Positions 1,083 through 62,971 of a stretch of DNA of 64,000 bases are shown here, in pieces. The notes under the pieces were generated by a model, which was given only the letters and a program-made list of their open reading frames with translations, was not told the DNA's origin and made no database searches. The stretch is from NCBI RefSeq assembly GCF_001677475.2, contig NZ_CP015229.1; one strand, written 5' to 3'. Source of the stretch: Escherichia coli. Lineage in GTDB: Bacteria; Pseudomonadota; Gammaproteobacteria; Enterobacterales; Enterobacteriaceae. The position numbers and the translations under genes are program-made. Every line of letters starts with the position of its first letter. The first letter of the stretch is position 1.

Positions 1083-3179
1083 TTACTCAATGCGTACAAA
1101 AAGACCGATATAGCCACGCGTTGTATCGTGACTAATGCGGGTCCCCGAAAGCGCCGTGTAACGACCGGGGAAGTTGTATTCACCAGCACCGCCAATCACA
1201 ACCTGCGGTGAGGATGCGTATGTCCCTGTATCGCTAACCCGTGCACTCATAGCCAGAGGGCCAAGACGGGAACCCGGCACAATATCACCGAGCCCCAGAG
1301 ACGCATCTGCACCAAAACTCTCCCCCTGATATGCCGCCATAATCGGCACACCAACGGCCGGGTATTTATAATATGAGCCTGAGCCCGCCATCCTGGACAG
1401 CAGGTACGCCAGTGAATCTCCGTCGTATACAACTACCCGCGATGACATGTTCCAGCTGTTATCGCTGTCGTTGTACCGGTACTGCATATAGTGAATACAG
1501 TGTTCACCCTGATAATACTGGTTGTAGCACATCAGGGTTTTAAATTTGCGGACTGTGTCGGATTCACTGTTGGCGTACGGTGACCACATCACATCAATAA
1601 TGCCGTTAAATTGCGTGGTACCGGTAAGCAGTTGCGAGGAGTCTGTAATACTGACCGCATACCGCCCCGGCGTGACTTTCTTCAACCACTCAACGAAATC
1701 AGACAGCCCCTCAAACGCCAGAGCGTCAGTGCTGGTGAATGCCTGTCCAAACCCATACATCCCGGACAGGGCCAGCCTGCCCGGTGTGCGGTCACGGATA
1801 TCACTCTGGGGTTCCATCGTCGCAGCCGCGTTCAGCTCAAGCTCCGTGCGCATGGCTTCAGCCGTGTCATGCGCCAGTAATGCGCGGCCCTTCTCTGACA
1901 GCAGAGACAGTGAGGCATTCCCGTCTGTATTGAAGTACAGAAGATTATCTGCCCGTTGCGTCAGTGCGCTGATTGCCGTTAAGACGTCATTAAGCGGTTG
2001 TTTGCCTGCCAGCGCGTTTGTGATTGTCGTCGCAAAGTTCGGGTCATTGCCCAGCGCCGCTGCCAGCTCGTTCAGGGTGTCCAGAACTTCCGGCGATGAG
2101 CCAACCAGCGCAGCAAGCAGTTTGCGCACAAACGCTGCGTTCGCTGCTTCCAGACCGGCGGCATCATCCGGTGGGGTTGGGGTGGTTGGGGTGCCGGTGA
2201 AGGCCGGACTGTCCAGTGGCGCTTTTGTTTTCGCCTCGTCCATGACGTCTTTGACAGCCTTTGGCGTGGCAGCCAGTTCCTCGCTGTCGTTGTCCGTATC
2301 ACTACAGAGTTGCACCAGACCTTTTTCTGTCGTGGAGGCATTTGTTGCATTCAGGTCATCAACTATCTGCTGCGCCTCATCCCTGTACTGTTTCGCTTCC
2401 TGCGCATTGTCTGCACCTGCATCCTGGCTGGCTTTAGCCTGTCGGGCGTATTCGGCGGCACTGTTTTTGTGCCCCAGCGCCGCATTTGCCGACAGTTCTG
2501 AACTGGTCGCTGCTGATGATGCGGCATTATGATAAAGGCGGGCGCGTTCGGCGGCATCGACTGATTCGTCCCGCGCTGTGCCTGATGACTGTGCGCTGTT
2601 TTCTGCCTCACCCGCAAAACGTTCCGCATCATCACGGGCCGTTGCGGTTGTCGTCACATCCTGTGCCGTCTGCTGTGCGTTTCCGGCTGCAGCTTCGGCG
2701 CTCTGCTGTGTCTGATTTTTTAGCTCTTCTGCCTCATCCTTACTAACCGCCGCAGATGTTGCTGCATTGATTGCATCATCAGCAGCTGTTTCTGCTCTCT
2801 CCCTGTCACTGACCACCTGCTCAGACAAGCGAACAACGGTATTTACCATTTCCTCAAAACGCTTCATTACCTCAGGGCGTAAATCACCCTCCTTTGGTGC
2901 ATCCAGAAAAGCATTCAGCGTATCCGGCTCATCTGTCGGTGCAACATAAATTTCCCCCGCCTTTACAGGAGGATGCCCTGAGCGGGACAAAAATACATCA
3001 TAAAATCCCGGCTCAGCATTAATAGTATACCCGCCATCACTTCCCGTAAGACAGGTTGCCACAATATTAACCACAACTGTCGGACTGGTTCTTCTGGCTC
3101 GCAATTCAATCGCACAGTTTACGACAGGCTCACCCGCTCCGTCCTTCAGGACACCTGAAATCTTTACTGCCATATTCAC
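1083..3179 (-). CDS. stf: Side tail fiber protein (Stf-like)
   Basis: 698-aa ORF between lom and tfa; Ala/Gln-rich coiled shaft and C-terminal receptor-binding region. Confidence 0.8.
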   Translation of the reverse strand: MNMAVKISGVLKDGAGEPVVNCAIELRARRTSPTVVVNIVATCLTGSDGGYTINAEPGFYDVFLSRSGHPPVKAGEIYVAPTDEPDTLNAFLDAPKEGDLRPEVMKRFEEMVNTVVRLSEQVVSDRERAETAADDAINAATSAAVSKDEAEELKNQTQQSAEAAAGNAQQTAQDVTTTATARDDAERFAGEAENSAQSSGTARDESVDAAERARLYHNAASSAATSSELSANAALGHKNSAAEYARQAKASQDAGADNAQEAKQYRDEAQQIVDDLNATNASTTEKGLVQLCSDTDNDSEELAATPKAVKDVMDEAKTKAPLDSPAFTGTPTTPTPPDDAAGLEAANAAFVRKLLAALVGSSPEVLDTLNELAAALGNDPNFATTITNALAGKQPLNDVLTAISALTQRADNLLYFNTDGNASLSLLSEKGRALLAHDTAEAMRTELELNAAATMEPQSDIRDRTPGRLALSGMYGFGQAFTSTDALAFEGLSDFVEWLKKVTPGRYAVSITDSSQLLTGTTQFNGIIDVMWSPYANSESDTVRKFKTLMCYNQYYQGEHCIHYMQYRYNDSDNSWNMSSRVVVYDGDSLAYLLSRMAGSGSYYKYPAVGVPIMAAYQGESFGADASLGLGDIVPGSRLGPLAMSARVSDTGTYASSPQVVIGGAGEYNFPGRYTALSGTRISHDTTRGYIGLFVRIE

Positions 3180-3904: not shown

Positions 3905-6900
3905 TCAGCTGATACTGATACCTGCTGTGGATTTCTTCATCACCACAACCAGCAGATCGCTGATACTGGTTGTTGGTGTCCAGTTATTCGCTCCTGATGA
4001 AGATACGGTGAATGTCAGTGTCAGCGCCCCCTGTCCGGCAGGCATATCTATAACTGAGGAAAATACGCCCTGAGCATCCGTCGTGGACTGATTAAAAATC
4101 TCCTGACCATTGCGGGTCACTCTTAACCGGCAGGTTGAATACCAGTATGACTGTTGGTTATTACTGTTGAAATTCTCATGCTTACCACCACGGAACAACA
4201 CTGGCGGTATCATGACCTGCCGGTCAAATTTCTGATCATCACTGATTCTTACCGTGATGGTGCCACTGGCATAACTGTTCGTGCGGGGGAAAGACTTGCT
4301 GACCGTTTTGACAATATCGCCTTCAATCTGGTTGGCTGACAGTTTCCCCTTAATCTGACAGTTCTCATTTATCGTGACGTTGTTGAGCGTCCCGGAGTTC
4401 GCATTCACGTTACCGCTGATATCGGCATTTTTAGCGGTCAGCTTTCCGTCCGGTGTCAGGGAAAATGCAGGAGGATTACCGCCGCTGGTAATGGTGGGAG
4501 CCGTCAGATATTTCAGGAACACTTCATTCATGAATATCTGATCACCCTGACCAACAAACATCGGTTTTGTGTTGCCATTTGCAGGATTAATCATCGCAAT
4601 CCTGTCTGCCGCCAGCAGCACCTGACTCTGCATGCCGTCGGGGGTGTTCTCAATACCGGCACCGATACCCGCAATATAAAGGCGACCATCCTGCATCTGC
4701 TGCAGTTTCACGGCCCACATACTGTTCAGGTTATTACTGGTGTCCGTCTGAACCTTTTGTATCTGCTGGATGGTGGCCTCCTGATCTCCCAGCTTCTGGT
4801 CCGTTGTCGTCATGATTTCACTGCTTTTTTGATCCACATACTGGCGAACCTGCGCTATCTGGCGTGCATTCTCCTCATTACTCTGACTGACCGTCTGCGT
4901 GAGTTCGCTGCTGACGTTATCCACTCTCTGGCTCACCTGTGATATACCCAGTGACAGCTCATCATTTTTTTTCGCAACCAGCTGCGTGAGGCTGTTTTCT
5001 GTCTCCCCGATTTTTTGGGTCACTTCAGCAATATCACTCTCTATCTGCTGATTGATCTCATCCTCCAGTTGCTCAACTTCACTGCGCAATGCCGAGGCAT
5101 TAATACGATCGTTCAGCTCCTGCCCCAGCAGGGTGCTGTTTATTTTCCCTTCAAAAAAATGGAGATATTTCTCAGCATCGTTACCCGGCTGGCCAACAGC
5201 CTCCACAAATGCCGATTTGCCGACGGTATTCACACTGCGAACGTAAAAATAATAATTATTGCCCGGCTCAATATCCGGTCCGGAGGCTATCCAGTACAGC
5301 GCCGTACCAAGATAGCGGGCTGTGGTTTCAACCTGCCTGATATCGATAATCCGCTTTTCCGATAACCAGAACTCAAACTGTACCGTCGGGTCATATACAG
5401 CCAGTTTCGGGACCGCCGTTATCTGAAAATACCCCGGTATCAGTTCAATAGTGACAGGCGCTACCGGTGCCGCAATCCGGAACGATACCGACGCCGGATC
5501 ACCCTGCTGCCCCCGGGCATTTACCGCCCGGACCGTCAGCATATAACGCCCCAGCGCCAGTTGTCTGAAGCGGTATGTGGTTTCCGTCGTCCGGGCTGTG
5601 CTGACCAGCCGCTCACTGCCGTCGTCCGCTGCCACGGTCAGGCGAAGCATGAAGCTCACGCCCTTCACCACCTTCGGCGTGTCCCAGCGGGCCAGTACCT
5701 GATACTCCCCGCTGTCTGCGGTGACTTCGGCGGTAAGGTGCTGCACCGCTGGCGGCGTGACACCATTCACCGTGCCGCTCTGGTCGCCGTCAAAGTGCGC
5801 CCCGTTATCCACGATGGCTTCTTTTTCCGGTACATGCTGCACGGCAGTGATGGCATACGTGCCGTCGTCGTTCTCACGGATACTCACGCAGCGGAACAGG
5901 CGCTGGCGCAGCGTCGGCAGCTTCAGCCCCCACACGCTGTATTCTGCAACGCCGTCAGGAACACGGCTCACTTTCACCTTCATGCCGTCGGTGACGGACT
6001 GAACCTCCACGCTGACCGGATTGCCATTTCCGTCAACCAGGCTTATCAGAGTGGTGCCGGAGGATGGCAGCGTGATTTCACGGTCGAGCGTCAGCGTCCG
6101 GGTCTGGCTGTTCACCGCCAGCACGCGACCACCGATGCTGATACCCGCATAGTCATCATCGCAGATTTCAATGATATCGCCCGGCACATGGCGAAGCCCT
6201 TCGGCACCCACGCTGAAGTCCACGGTCTGCGTTTCCAGCAGTTCCGTTTTAATCAGCCACAGCCCGGCGCGGTGCGCCTGCCCCCGGCTGGTACAGCCAA
6301 AGGCATCCATCTTCGTGACGTTACGACCGTAACGGGCAATGGCCTGCGTGTCCTCCACAAGCTCTGTTGCCGTCTCCCAGCCGTTGTCCGGGTCAATCCA
6401 GTTCACCTCAACGGCATTATGGCGGTCCTTCAGGGCGCTGAAGCTGTAGCGGAACGGCGCGCCGTCATCCGGCATCACCACATTACTGCGGTTATAGGTC
6501 CACACCTTATCCGACGGCCGGTCCTGCACGAACGTCAGCGTCTGCCCGTTCCATACCGGCATACAGCGCATCGCCGAGCAGAAATCACTGAGCACATCCC
6601 ACGCCTTACGCTGTGTTGTCAGGTAAGCATTACAGGTGATGCGCGGCTCCGTGCCGCCAAAGCCGTCCGGCACTGACTGGTCGCAGTACTGGCCGATGAC
6701 ATACAGCGCCCATTTATCCACATCCGCCGCACCAAGACGTTTCCCCATGCCGTAGCGCGGATGGGTCAGCATATCCCACAGACACCAGGCCATGTTGTTG
6801 CTGTATGCCGGTTTAAACGTTCCGTCCCAGATACTGCTGTATTGCCGCGTCTGCGGGTTATAGTTCGACGGCACCTGCAGAATGCGCCCGCGAAGATGAT

Positions 6901-26122: not shown

Positions 26123-26383
26123 TAAGTTTACGCATGTCTGATAGAATCTGTAGAACCTGTTTATATAAAAAGCCCCTCAGGAGAGGGGCATGCTTGCATG
26201 GTGCCGGGTGCCTCCCGATGAATTCAGTATCAGTACCCGAATCAGCATAATAAAGGAGCAGAACAGAAACATACATCACTCATATGCCCACCACCCGGGG
26301 GGATCCACCATGCAAATTTTTTCTAACAAAAGCTCCGTCAACCAGCAATGCCCAATCAACTTAATTGTGATGGATTTAACATT

Positions 26384-27180: not shown

Positions 27181-27723
27181 CTATCTTCGGCAGAGATGCT
27201 TTGCCAAATTCACATCATTCATCGACATTAAAATACTGTCTTTGATGAACTCGCATACCTCGTTAATTTTTGCATCGGTATCTACGTGCGAAAATGTTCT
27301 GTCCCCATAACCATTAACTGAAATCGTCAGGTTATCGCCATCAAGCAGCACAATCTTTACACCAACTTCCACACTTGCAGACTGGCGGGGATTGTCATCA
27401 ACAACTGTGTATAAATTAAACGCAACTCCGTCCCTAAGGTCTACCTGCAAATCCTCCGGTCGGACACTGAAGCCATTGAGGCAAATATAGACGTAAGGAT
27501 GTAACTCACCCTCAATGTCTCGCCATTGCAGTTCCGGCAACGCCAGTGAAGACTCATAGGCATTGACCAGCCTTGTGGCTGTATCCCGCAACCGCTGAAT
27601 GTATTCCTGCTTAGCTTTCAGTATTTCGGCCCGTTTTGCCCTGATATCAGCATAAGTGACCACTGTATCAATCCTCTTATGAACAAATAAACAAGCCATC
27701 ATAATAACCGCCAGGGTATACAT
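27181..27723 (-). CDS. Hypothetical N-terminally membrane-anchored protein
   Basis: 180 aa, MYTLAVIMMACLFV anchor then coiled region and beta-rich C-terminus; no recognised family. Confidence 0.45.
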   Translation of the reverse strand: MYTLAVIMMACLFVHKRIDTVVTYADIRAKRAEILKAKQEYIQRLRDTATRLVNAYESSLALPELQWRDIEGELHPYVYICLNGFSVRPEDLQVDLRDGVAFNLYTVVDDNPRQSASVEVGVKIVLLDGDNLTISVNGYGDRTFSHVDTDAKINEVCEFIKDSILMSMNDVNLAKHLCRR

Positions 27724-27761
27724 GAAAAAGGCCGCCGTAGCGAGCCATGAAAAAACAGAAT

Positions 27762-27787
27762 AAAAAAAAACCGCCAGGTGTGGCGGT
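27762..27787 (-). terminator. Rho-independent terminator
   Basis: Minus strand ACCGCCACACCUGGCGG followed by a run of 9 U. Confidence 0.6.
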
Positions 27788-27865
27788 AAAGATGTATTCC
27801 CAGGTTTCAGGTTTTACTTAGTAGCAAATTGTTCTATAACTTACTCTAAGTGATGTTTACAACAT

Positions 27866-27934
27866 CGGAATGGTGCATCACCGGTACCTGCCATAGGGCT
27901 CACTACGTAGCCCAACCAATAATGCACCATTCCG
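27866..27934 (-). repeat. Nested inverted repeat (13-bp perfect arms enclosing an 18-bp palindrome)
   Basis: CGGAATGGTGCAT at 27866-27878 and its reverse complement at 27922-27934; inner GGGCTCACTACGTAGCCC. Confidence 0.6.
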
Positions 27935-28067
27935 GTATTGTAAAAAATCAGCACTGAGGCTAACCTGGCCTCAAAACATAGCCCGAAAACTGAGAGTTCC
28001 TAAAAAAAACAATCTGTCCTCACGTAATAAAAATACGCCAGTGCTGCAATACGCCTCTATCAAATGT

Positions 28068-28142
<75 letters not shown>

Positions 28143-28145
28143 ATA

Positions 28146-28221
<76 letters not shown>

Positions 28222-28335
28222 ATTGCTTCCTCGGATGTGAGATGAAATACATCTGAAATGTAATGCACCTTTCTCTCGAAGTAACCCAATAATACGGGAA
28301 GTTAACATTAATTCATTAGCTTATTGTGCAGTGAT

Positions 28336-28885
28336 TTAATTATCTGCCAACGTAACTATTTCACCCGCAGTATGCTCAAAACGTTCAGACTCAAGTTCAA
28401 CGCTTAACGCCATGCCCCCAAGTGCCAGCGCTGCTTTTATTATGGAGCCTGATCCCATGAAAAAGTCGGCAACCAAATCTCCCGGACGCAAACAGAATGC
28501 GCTCTGTTGCCGGGAAATACGCCCGCAGGCTTTCCTTGTTGCACCCGTTCCAGCGCCCGGACAGCTTCGCCCAGATAATGTGGTTCAGCACATTAAAGCG
28601 CTCACGCATCATGATTTCGATATCAGATGCCAGGCGATGACCACAGAACAGGTAAAGACTTCCGGCGGGTTTTAATACCCACCAGAACTGCGCCAGACAC
28701 TGATCCAGCCATTTCAGGTAATCATCGTCGCCCTTCCACTGGTTATCCCAGCCCTCGGGCTTCACTTTAAAGTATGGCGGGTCTGTGACTATCAGATCGA
28801 CAGAGTTTTCCGGTAAGGTCTGGATAAATTCCAGGAAATCAGCGTTGATTAACTCGCAGCTGGATATTTTTACAGTATTAGCCAT
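28336..28885 (-). pseudogene. DNA methyltransferase (DPPY, beta-class) interrupted by a 1-nt frameshift
   Basis: N-part has DLIVTDPPYF; SAM motif DFFMGSGS and C-terminus lie in another frame after a CCGGG run near 28480. Confidence 0.6.
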
Positions 28886-30494: not shown

Positions 30495-30869
30495 CTACCG
30501 CATATCCATATCTAACCGGACATTCAGAGCCATAAGCATTCCTTCAATAATACCTTCAGCTTTATAAAGTCTTTTACCAATAAGCCCATCAGAACATCTA
30601 TGCTTACGTGCAAGAGCCATAAATGTCATTCCACCTACGTAATAATCGACCAACAAATCGTGCAAATACTGATTATTCTTGTTTAATCGTGCCATACAGC
30701 CACAAATTATCATGGCGTCATCATCAGAACACTGAGGACGTGATTTCACTTTAGTTGGGATTAATCCTTTAAAACCAGCAGCTATCGAGGACCATGTTAC
30801 ATCTTCATGATTATTTGCTGCCCATGCTCCCCACCGCTCCATAACCAGCTGAATATCACGCAACATCAT
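30495..30869 (-). CDS. Q: Late antiterminator Q (QuuD-like)
   Basis: 124 aa, [34 protein letters not shown]...[16 protein letters not shown] matches the small Q family. Confidence 0.85.
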
Positions 30870-33148: not shown

Positions 33149-33304
33149 TTACTCCTCAGATTCGTAAGCTGTGAAGACAGCGACCTCCGTCTGGCCGGTT
33201 CGGATTCGCACCTCGCAGAGGTCTTTCCTCGTTACCAGTGCCGTCACTATGACGGTTAAACAGATGACGATCAGGGCGATTAACATCGCCTTTTGCTGCT
33301 TCAT
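33149..33304 (-). CDS. hokD: Hok/Gef-family membrane toxin (HokD/RelF-like)
   Basis: MKQQKAMLIALIVICLTVIVTALVTRKDLCEVRIRTGQTEVAVFTAYESEE, near-identical to E. coli HokD; longer overlapping in-frame ORF is mok-like. Confidence 0.9.
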   Translation of the reverse strand: MKQQKAMLIALIVICLTVIVTALVTRKDLCEVRIRTGQTEVAVFTAYESEE

Positions 33305-33594
33305 AGCCTGCTTCTCCTTGCCTTTCGGCACGTAAGAGGCTAACCTACATGTGCAAAGCATGAAATTGGCCTCAGATTAATGTTAAGCGTCTTGCCGGAC
33401 GCGTAATGTTAACTGGGGCTTTTCTCTATCTGCCGTTGGTGTTCATGCCCGAGGCAGATAGCCTCAAGCACCCGCTGCAATTCTACTTAACTCTCCTTTT
33501 CCCGCAAACCGTTTTTATCCCCAGCGGCAAATCGAATACACCACCAGCGCCACCGCAAGTGCAATTCCTACCGTTGTGAATGCTTCAGGCCAGG

Positions 33595-40746: not shown

Positions 40747-40799
40747 ATTCTGGTGACATTTGGCGGTATCAGTTTTACTCCGTGACTGCTCTGCCGCCC
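40747..40799 (+). ncRNA. dicF: DicF small RNA
   Basis: TTCTGGTGACATTTGGCGGTATCAGTTTTACTCCGTGACTGCTCTGCCGCCC followed by TTTTT, matches DicF sRNA upstream of dicB. Confidence 0.8.
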
Positions 40800-45254: not shown

Positions 45255-45344
45255 GATTGAATTTTGGCGGAGAGAGGGGGATTTGAACCCCCGGTGGAGT
45301 TGCCCCCACTCCGGTTTTCGAGACCGGTCCGTTCAGCCGCTCCG
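45255..45344 (-). tRNA. serU: tRNA-Ser (anticodon CGA), serU; prophage attachment site
   Basis: 90-nt tRNA with long variable arm, anticodon loop CUCGAAA, GGTTCAAATCC T-arm, CCA end. Confidence 0.9.
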
Positions 45345-45447
45345 GCATCTCTCCGTTCAGATGGTTGCCATGATGCCAGGAAATTTGGCATTTTAACAGT
45401 CCCTGTCCGTGCAATTTTGTTCAAGTGACGAGTTTGCGAGCAAAACG

Positions 45448-46345: not shown

Positions 46346-46421
46346 TCCTCTGTAGTTCAGTCGGTAGAACGGCGGACTGTTAATCCGTATGTCACTGGTT
46401 CGAGTCCAGTCAGAGGAGCCA
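46346..46421 (+). tRNA. asnT: tRNA-Asn (GUU)
   Basis: TCCTCTGTAGTTCAGTCGGTAGAACGGCGGACTGTTAATCCGT...GGTTCGAGTCC...CCA. Confidence 0.95.
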
Positions 46422-61071: not shown

Positions 61072-61147
61072 TGGCTCCTCTGACTGGACTCGAACCAGTG
61101 ACATACGGATTAACAGTCCGCCGTTCTACCGACTGAACTACAGAGGA
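61072..61147 (-). tRNA. asnW: tRNA-Asn (GUU)
   Basis: Reverse complement identical to the asnT sequence. Confidence 0.95.
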
Positions 61148-62895: not shown

Positions 62896-62971
62896 TCCTC
62901 TGTAGTTCAGTCGGTAGAACGGCGGACTGTTAATCCGTATGTCACTGGTTCGAGTCCAGTCAGAGGAGCCA
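62896..62971 (+). tRNA. asnU: tRNA-Asn (GUU)
   Basis: Identical to asnT sequence. Confidence 0.95.

Follow-up and report, generated by a model that had tools for sequence, protein, structure and literature searches.

A long hairpin behind the tRNA genes of an Escherichia coli lambdoid prophage appears to belong to a conserved, structured RNA trailer

The hairpin-forming stretch that follows the tRNA-Thr and tRNA-Gly genes in Escherichia coli contig NZ_CP015229.1 is one of several conserved helices which together fill positions 27762-28067, and we are highly confident that this long hairpin and the trailer around it constitute a selected RNA element of the tRNA trailer. Its role is modelled here as that of a processing or stability module, the hairpin being one domain of the conserved non-coding 3′ trailer of a prophage tRNA operon, a reading to which we assign a probability of roughly 0.55. 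The window, i.e. the whole 64,000-nucleotide stretch of DNA that was analysed, represents a lambdoid prophage of E. coli, and the genes of its late region lie on the minus strand in the order antiterminator Q (30495-30869), CPBP protease gene, disrupted DNA methylase gene, tRNA-Thr and tRNA-Gly, and thereafter the ORF-free stretch, a terminator, a 180-aa ORF, TerB, a DUF3927 gene, an STnc100 RNA and the holin. The trailer unit itself runs from tRNA-Thr and tRNA-Gly through a linker of approximately 20 nt, a four-way-junction domain, a U tract, the long hairpin and a short 3′ module to an intrinsic terminator. The original prediction had correctly placed a hairpin here; its extent was underestimated, as the feature is larger and forms part of a conserved multi-domain RNA with hundreds of homologues which had been overlooked. 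The features are as follows.

28289..28350, minus strand: candidate promoter region of the tRNA unit, weak here (scan and by eye)
28146..28221, minus strand: tRNA-Thr (UGU), from ARAGORN; 65.0 bits with the Rfam tRNA model
28068..28142, minus strand: tRNA-Gly (UCC), last of the array, from ARAGORN; 65.6 bits with Rfam; the trailer begins at its CCA
27949..28046, minus strand: four-way-junction domain, in which P1 encloses P2, P3 and P4
28046-28039 with 27956-27949, minus strand: helix P1, CAGCACUG/CAGUGCUG, 8 nt, 100% complementary
28038-28022, 28021-27985 and 27984-27957, minus strand: P2, P3 and P4, respectively, from the predicted fold
27942..27948, minus strand: A/U tract (AUUUUUU; U6-7 in the family), directly after P1, its last three U forming the foot of P5
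27856..27944, minus strand: long hairpin P5, 5′ arm 27944-27915 and 3′ arm 27885-27856, with 20 contiguous bp including several G-U
27896..27913, minus strand: apical stem-loop of P5 (GGGCU, 8-nt loop, AGCCC), from the predicted fold
27886..27895, minus strand: unpaired 3′-side bulge UAUGGCAGGU, its core UGGCAGG near-invariant in alignments A2 and A3
27788..27855, minus strand: short 3′ module, consisting of hairpin P6 (27852-27816) and single-stranded 27815-27788 (AAAACCUGAAACCUGGGAAUACAUCUUU)
27762..27787, minus strand: intrinsic terminator ending the unit, ACCGCCA-CACC-UGGCGGU followed by U9, with a 7-bp stem

The 13-bp inverted repeat from which the hairpin had been recognised is indeed perfect, 27866-27878 (CGGAATGGTGCAT) being the reverse complement of 27922-27934 (ATGCACCATTCCG), and was found by the repeat finder to grow into arms of 30 nt (27856-27885 and 27915-27944) that are 83% complementary as DNA. 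The inverted repeats had been described as nested and perfect; they are nested, and perfection is confined to the outer one because the supposed 18-bp palindrome GGGCTCACTACGTAGCCC (27896-27913) pairs only over GGGCT/AGCCC (5 bp) around an 8-nt loop. This apical stem is swapped among lineages, where GGAGAU..UUUCC or AGAGAU..UCUCU is found instead, and three of the four modelled apical pairs change on both sides. The 102-nt hairpin folds with -49.3 kcal/mol as compared to -26.2 +/- 3.2 kcal/mol for dinucleotide shuffles (z = -7.2, 0 of 200), and the whole 313-nt trailer reaches -112.5 kcal/mol on the minus strand (z = -6.8) and -87.6 kcal/mol on the plus strand (z = -4.7). The folding check thus returned the structure beyond chance that had been anticipated, and the long stem-loop proposed to lie between the tRNA pair and a strong terminator is borne out at the RNA level on the minus strand, which is the sense of the late genes and the tRNAs. 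The terminator, too, was correctly called at 27762-27787, with its ACCGCCA/TGGCGGT stem and 9-T run on the minus strand. P5 was considered as an intrinsic terminator in its own right and rejected, since it is followed by AAACAUCAC rather than a U run. The CTGGCAGGG bulge was likewise rejected as the -24 element of a sigma-54 promoter, a GC at the required 10-bp spacing being absent by eye, and with regard to sigma-70 promoters the promoter scan found none inside the hairpin, where spacers appeared unsuitable by eye.

Selection on the pairing of the minus-strand transcript was assessed with covariance model R1, which describes the hairpin, and with alignment A4, which holds 53 sequences (52 distinct homologues). 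R1 scored 88.1 bits on the minus strand as compared to 46.4 bits on the plus strand. Pairing at the 28 modelled stem positions is retained in 97.6% of the cells of A4, and 96.6% of its pair cells are standard pairs as against 35-60% when the partners are slid, figures which, like those of alignment A6 below, lean towards the modelled structures as both alignments were fitted to covariance models. At 17 of the 28 stem pairs one side varies via G-U intermediates with pairing retained, and both sides change in six pairs, one of which occurs as A-U 26, G-C 19 and G-U 4. Non-Watson-Crick cells among the 52 distinct homologues comprise 367 G-U/U-G versus 27 A-C/C-A, an asymmetry that is expected only with a selected minus-strand transcript and speaks against a palindrome acting as DNA. 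In the centre of the helix, 12 bp are near-invariant instead of covarying, which suggests either a sequence-specific role beyond that of a pure processing helix or recent common descent. Mean identity amounts to 83% in the 5′ arm, 63% in the four-way-junction domain and 91% in the 3′ arm, the last value being inflated because the first IMG/VR search pattern sat in that arm.

The structure of the adjoining four-way junction was derived with RNAalifold from alignments A3 and A5. The domain measures about 108 nt in the family and occurs in at least two sequence types, A and B, which are approximately 60% identical and share one architecture: an 8-bp closing helix P1 with invariant GCACUG/CAGUGC, three hairpins inside it, and junction linkers of 0-1 nt. 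Model R2, built on type A alone, recovered type-B copies at exactly the expected position. In alignment A6, 97.6% of cells are paired and two-sided changes were observed in 12 of 29 pairs, with a covariation score of 0.357 versus 0.220 in shuffles (0 of 500), a comparison whose significance is overstated since the sequences share descent. The U-run columns of the A/U tract are invariant in A2 and A3, and a scan for terminator-like elements flagged 27974-27954 together with TGCTGATTTT; the tract is a possible candidate for an RNase E or Hfq site, or for a weak first terminator. A riboswitch-like aptamer composed of junction and U tract was rejected because the loops of types A and B are unlike in sequence and length, no junction nucleotides are both unpaired and conserved, the linkers measure 0-1 nt, and a riboswitch match in Rfam is absent.

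The part of the trailer beyond the hairpin occurs in two lengths, the terminator being reached after 54-72 nt (the type present in the window) or after 144-158 nt (an STnc100-like module). A terminator of the form CCGCC-N6-GGCGG-U7-9 follows in 67 of 73 distinct downstream sequences, and in alignment A1 the sequence AAGCAAAACCUGGAAAUACAUC is conserved ahead of the terminator in five prophage lineages; the short module is possibly the body of a small RNA. The long module of the relatives gave a full-length match to the STnc100 model which is sub-threshold at 24.4 bits (E = 0.0022 in a 436-nt search), it has the CGGGAGGCACCCG motif in common with STnc100 and PasD2, and position 1 of the STnc100 model falls inside the 3′ arm of the hairpin. 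Assignment of the trailer to the STnc100/PasD family (RF02076) was rejected, the score of the relatives' long module lying below the Rfam gathering threshold of 47 bits, and within 27600-28400, an interval that includes the 3′ module of the window, the STnc100 model matched nothing up to E = 10. A genuine full-length STnc100 (RF02076, 93.7 bits) is encoded in the window 1.4 kb downstream at 26167-26342 on the minus strand, between the TerB/DUF3927 genes, which it directly follows, and the holin; no hairpin precedes it, and STnc100-family sRNAs thus do not need the hairpin. In the nearest relative, the 180-aa ORF, TerB and DUF3927 also stand between hairpin and STnc100, and these three genes may represent cargo inserted into an ancestral hairpin-STnc100 arrangement.

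Several minor observations concern the boundary with the 180-aa ORF (27181-27723, minus strand), which starts directly after the trailer, is annotated in RefSeq as hypothetical protein WP_236923124.1 with a start that sits 7 codons further in, and yielded no family in a Pfam search. Around its start codon and RBS, this ORF shows complementarity to the single-stranded stretch and to the terminator's 5′ half (27700-27723 with 27781-27804, and 27703-27715 with 27766-27778; 11/13 and 11/14 positions), and the ORF start carries a direct copy of the 3′ half of the terminator (AACCGCCAGG). Judged by this complementarity, the terminated or read-through RNA could mask the translation start of the ORF, or the match could be left over from a terminator duplication. 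Between the main terminator and the downstream ORF lies another, weaker terminator-like hairpin (27733-27749, minus strand; GGCUCGCUACGGCGGCC followed by UUUUU), which is conserved in E24377A (L002, 4007-3990).

BLAST searches returned a trailer match in 386 of 5426 complete E. coli genomes (approximately 7%) at 70-78% identity, and in only two sequenced phage records. The matches cover the hairpin alone, the hairpin with the upstream part or the hairpin with the downstream part, and on account of this variation in the flanks covered the hairpin represents the constant core of a mosaic region; it is kept even where both flanks have been exchanged (e.g. locus L006). A pattern scan of IMG/VR, combined with the loci already fetched, gave 104 copies (48 unique), nearly all of them on IMG/VR contigs (about 100), and a looser IMG/VR pattern, AATGGTGCAT-N22-50-TGGCAGG, produced mainly chance matches from which the R1 filter kept 21 further true ones. 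The single match among GTDB species representatives, where about two were expected by chance, came from Marinomonas and was rejected by both R1 and R2. From the genomes, IMG/VR contigs and GTDB representatives scanned, the known range of the element is E. coli-group prophages. A dispersed repeat of the REP, ERIC or MITE-like kind was rejected, given a single copy in the 64-kb window and a median of one place per genome (maximum five). In all seven annotated loci the trailer lies between the Q gene or the tRNA array and the holin, in unchanged orientation, within the late region upstream of the lysis genes. One LT-IIb enterotoxin phage fragment, SerU-LTIIb (L003, KU052038.1), harbours two copies of the tRNA-Gly/junction/hairpin unit (4943-5038 and 3042-3138), one of type A and one of type B, about 1.9 kb apart and upstream of lysis and toxin genes.

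The association with tRNA genes is close. Of 104 copies, 94 (approximately 90%) have the 3′ end of a tRNA-Gly within the 300 nt that precede the hairpin, and in these 94 copies the distance from the tRNA-Gly CCA to a point 8 nt past the conserved 3′-arm motif is a constant 206-223 nt. Among 89 copies scanned for arrays, 83 have a tRNA array ahead of them: Thr-Gly in 49, Met-Lys-Thr-Gly in 14, Met-Arg-Thr-Gly in 10, Gly alone in 8 and Met-Thr-Gly in 2, with none detected in 6. In SE11 (L005, 3311-3368) a gene for a MazF-like toxin is followed by a truncated, unannotated tRNA-Gly, which covers Rfam model positions 8-63, and then by the element; as this tRNA is truncated, the trailer can outlast a functional tRNA. 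Right before the first tRNA, relatives possess sigma-70 promoters close to consensus, e.g. TTGCAA-17-TATTAT (L015, 996..968), followed by a GC-rich discriminator, so that on sequence grounds the trailer unit probably has its own predicted promoter in those relatives and would not be solely part of the late transcript. The candidate found by the scan in the window (TTGGCA-16-CACAAT, 28350..28323) is weak at 9/12, and autonomous expression here is therefore uncertain; a TATTAT -10-like hexamer was noted by eye at 28294-28289. The best sigma-70-like match of the region, TCGGCA-16-TATAAT (10/12; 28127-28154, minus strand), is built from the tRNA-Thr 3′ end and the tRNA-Gly D-arm; it is found again in relatives because it is made of tRNA sequence, and is probably fortuitous.

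Rfam release 15, run over the whole window at gathering thresholds and over 27600-28400 at E up to 10, returned the two tRNAs and no family for the trailer, the outcome of a check that had been proposed at the outset; matches to microRNA precursors at E up to 10 were dismissed as meaningless reflections of a generic hairpin. A literature search by arm sequence retrieved just unrelated eukaryotic primer matches, and one by topic (prophage, tRNA, sRNA) retrieved no description of the element. STnc100 and PasD1/PasD2 (PMC8550237; bioRxiv 10.64898/2026.05.13.724894) likewise occupy the lambdoid late region near Q, TerB/DUF3927 and the holin; however, the described copies follow a protein gene, whereas the trailer follows a tRNA array, and hairpin and junction lie outside those families. 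The Pas sRNA preprint links PasD to STnc100 and notes tRNA matches near PasA/PasC, and a description of the trailer was not found in the sections and term searches covered. PasA and PasC, taken from EPEC E2348/69 by their published coordinates (loci L008 and L009), are also prophage late-region small RNAs beside a holin, and PasA is reportedly processed from a longer transcript. They are, however, antisense to the late genes while the trailer lies in the late-gene sense, and identity with them was rejected, since BLAST of the trailer against L008 and L009 gave nothing better than E = 2.3; the PasA/PasC sequences had no match in the region of interest of the window, and R1 found nothing at L008 or L009.

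Closer parallels exist among processed tRNA-operon and phage transcripts. The 3′ETS-leuZ RNA of the E. coli glyW-cysT-leuZ operon is a 3′ external transcribed spacer RNA of about 50 nt. Like it, the trailer is non-coding and lies between the last tRNA and the intrinsic terminator of the operon, and by analogy it would be co-transcribed with the tRNAs and may be released endonucleolytically; the long U tail of its terminator is typical of Hfq-binding RNAs, Hfq binding and a sponge role being putative here. Unlike 3′ETS-leuZ, the trailer measures about 300-390 nt, is composed of several domains (the four-way junction and a hairpin of about 30 bp) and is prophage-borne. Phage polycistronic transcripts contain RNase III processing hairpins such as the R1.1-type sites of T7, lambda sib and the N-leader, and P5 resembles them in being an imperfect, extended intramolecular helix (20 bp or more) that separates functional units of a phage transcript; a form arising only by read-through could be handled unlike the terminated form. 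The T7 sites have a central internal loop, whereas P5, for which cleavage is predicted only, has a conserved asymmetric bulge near its top and sits in a tRNA-operon trailer. The stable RNAs of phage T4 known as species 1 and species 2, to which no function is assigned, are co-transcribed with the T4 tRNA genes; like the trailer, they are structured non-coding RNAs encoded where a phage tRNA cluster ends, and they are released from the precursor of the tRNAs, as is proposed for the trailer. T4 is an unrelated virulent phage, and the likeness is purely conceptual. Taken with these comparisons, the trailer probably represents a new and undescribed RNA family of a familiar kind, that of a prophage tRNA-trailer or small-RNA precursor element.

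Of the explanations offered originally, those of a processing site and of a small RNA are plausible and are the leading ones. It is conceivable, though we consider it unlikely, that the hairpin, with or without the four-way junction, is itself the functional product, either as a protein-binding RNA recognised through bulge and helix core or as an sRNA precursor with a seed in its 3′ arm (GAUGUUGUAAA). The arms are more conserved than the junction domain (83-91% against 63% mean identity), the unpaired UGGCAGG bulge is invariant, the hairpin survives exchange of both flanks, position 1 of the STnc100 model aligns within the 3′ arm, and there is precedent for a hairpin-derived small phage RNA in 24B_1 of phage Phi24B, said to be of microRNA size (PMC4426718); the near-invariant core and the bulge fit a sequence-specific partner or a hairpin-derived sRNA at least as well as a simple processing helix. 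Such a seed is, however, locked within the -49 kcal/mol helix that holds both arms and would require cleavage and unwinding, the 3′-arm conservation is partly an ascertainment artefact of the search pattern, and no Rfam family resembles the hairpin. We regard it as improbable that the repeat is a DNA-level element, be it a conserved linker, or a hotspot of recombination, between exchangeable prophage modules, or else an inverted repeat that binds a protein or forms a cruciform, with an incidental RNA fold: the 367 G-U against 27 A-C cells on one strand would be mismatches on the other strand or in DNA, RNA pairing survives one-sided changes at 17 of 28 stem pairs, and the many compensatory changes in the adjoining four-way junction are sensible only for an RNA. 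Lambdoid genomes are mosaic, and what speaks for a DNA-level role are the similarity breakpoints at the hairpin edges (matches cover query positions 94-202, 102-298 or 2-202) and the near-invariance of the helix core; a role as recombination linker could accompany an RNA function.

The position of the stretch directly after two tRNAs, and the four helices and 8-bp closing stem of its upstream domain, would suit a decayed third tRNA or tRNA-like remnant carried with the array, an explanation that had been offered originally beside the remark that the stretch is not tRNA-like. The latter remark holds, and the former is very improbable: ARAGORN detects nothing besides the two annotated tRNAs, 27755-28067 gives no match to the Rfam tRNA model up to E = 10, no T-loop or D-loop is seen by eye, arm and loop sizes are wrong (about 108 nt) with linkers of 0-1 nt, and the hairpin is a single helix of about 30 bp whose covariation speaks of active maintenance and not of decay. 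Least credible of all is a coding function on either strand, be it for a micropeptide, a type I toxin or another small protein. A 37-aa ORF (minus strand) and a 35-aa ORF (plus strand) overlap the hairpin, a 15-aa ORF, MVHYRWRFCISWQGR, was found again in many type-A copies, and in E24377A the region is spanned by a hypothetical protein of 86 aa in the RefSeq annotation. Yet the sense-strand ORF varies from fewer than 12 to more than 27 codons (running off the extract), shifts frame between variants and is absent in some, the apical indels are not multiples of three, a Shine-Dalgarno sequence is not evident, and substitutions preserve pairing, not codons. Small ORFs were accordingly rejected, as they are not conserved in homologues, and the stretch is ORF-free as originally described, its largest ORFs spanning merely 30-37 aa and lacking conservation in homologues.

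We therefore return to the processing or stability module, which is favoured by the size of the helix, by its flanking linkers and by a presumed need of tRNA-operon transcripts for protection. RNase III accommodates about 22 bp of double-stranded RNA, and it typically cuts intramolecular stems twice (PMC6212723). The fold of the window offers 20 contiguous pairs, within the range of an intramolecular helix of about 20-22 bp, and the family helix comprises about 28 pairs with two mismatches, so that the helix is long enough for RNase III and is possibly a candidate site for this enzyme; the A/U-rich linkers on both sides of it resemble RNase E sites. That the hairpin acts specifically through endonucleolytic processing at or beside the helix is modelled on these properties and is a tentative proposal, to which we give somewhat less than even odds. 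In a lysogen the unit would be transcribed from its own tRNA-type promoter and stop at the terminator, which would thereby shield the downstream cargo and lysis genes from transcription; after induction, Q-modified polymerase would read through the terminator. RNase III could then cut within the helix, or RNase E in the adjoining A/U-rich linkers, parting the tRNA precursor from a terminator-proximal RNA, which would be an STnc100/PasD-like small RNA in many relatives and the shorter module in the window, and both cut products would keep structured, protected ends. Excision of tRNAs from a long transcript would leave monophosphorylated ends that invite decay, and the helix and compact junction might shield the products and set their boundaries.

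In the lambdoid prophages of pathogenic E. coli, the ‘moron’ region that holds Shiga and LT-II toxin genes also contains tRNA arrays and several Hfq-dependent sRNAs, and to our knowledge the biogenesis of these prophage RNAs, and the reason why tRNAs sit there, are poorly understood. The present RNA family, which is supported by covariation, physically links a tRNA array to an STnc100/PasD-like RNA and has a terminator that guards the lysis genes. A concrete route of biogenesis for prophage sRNAs, and a new example of RNA derived from a tRNA trailer, would follow should the hairpin prove to be a processing site; failing that, approximately 7% of complete E. coli genomes still contain a structured RNA that lacks annotation and would merit a family entry. 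A more speculative extension, which we consider rather doubtful, is that sRNAs of the STnc100/PasD type are, or arose as, the 3′ end of a phage tRNA-operon transcript, with the hairpin as an RNase III-type cut site exposing a G/U-rich 5′ seed from its own 3′ arm, and with the junction domain as a further stable RNA, e.g. a protein decoy or scaffold tied to phage tRNA function.

Some further observations were made in the surroundings of the trailer. The DNA methyltransferase gene upstream of the tRNAs (28336-28885, minus strand) is split into two overlapping ORFs, and its counterpart in the GB089 prophage, which is 99.6% identical, is annotated as a partial pseudogene; this rearrangement may have led to the loss of the good -35 element that is present upstream of the tRNA arrays in relatives. 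The same prophage encodes a sok antitoxin RNA of a hok/sok-type locus (33299-33473, minus strand, 112.8 bits) and a DicF RNA (40748-40799, plus strand, 77 bits). Beyond the prophage genes lie a tRNA-Ser(CGA) and three identical tRNA-Asn(GUU) genes (45265-45354, 46346-46421, 61072-61147 and 62896-62971), a stretch that presumably represents the chromosomal serU/asn tRNA region and the attachment area of the prophage.
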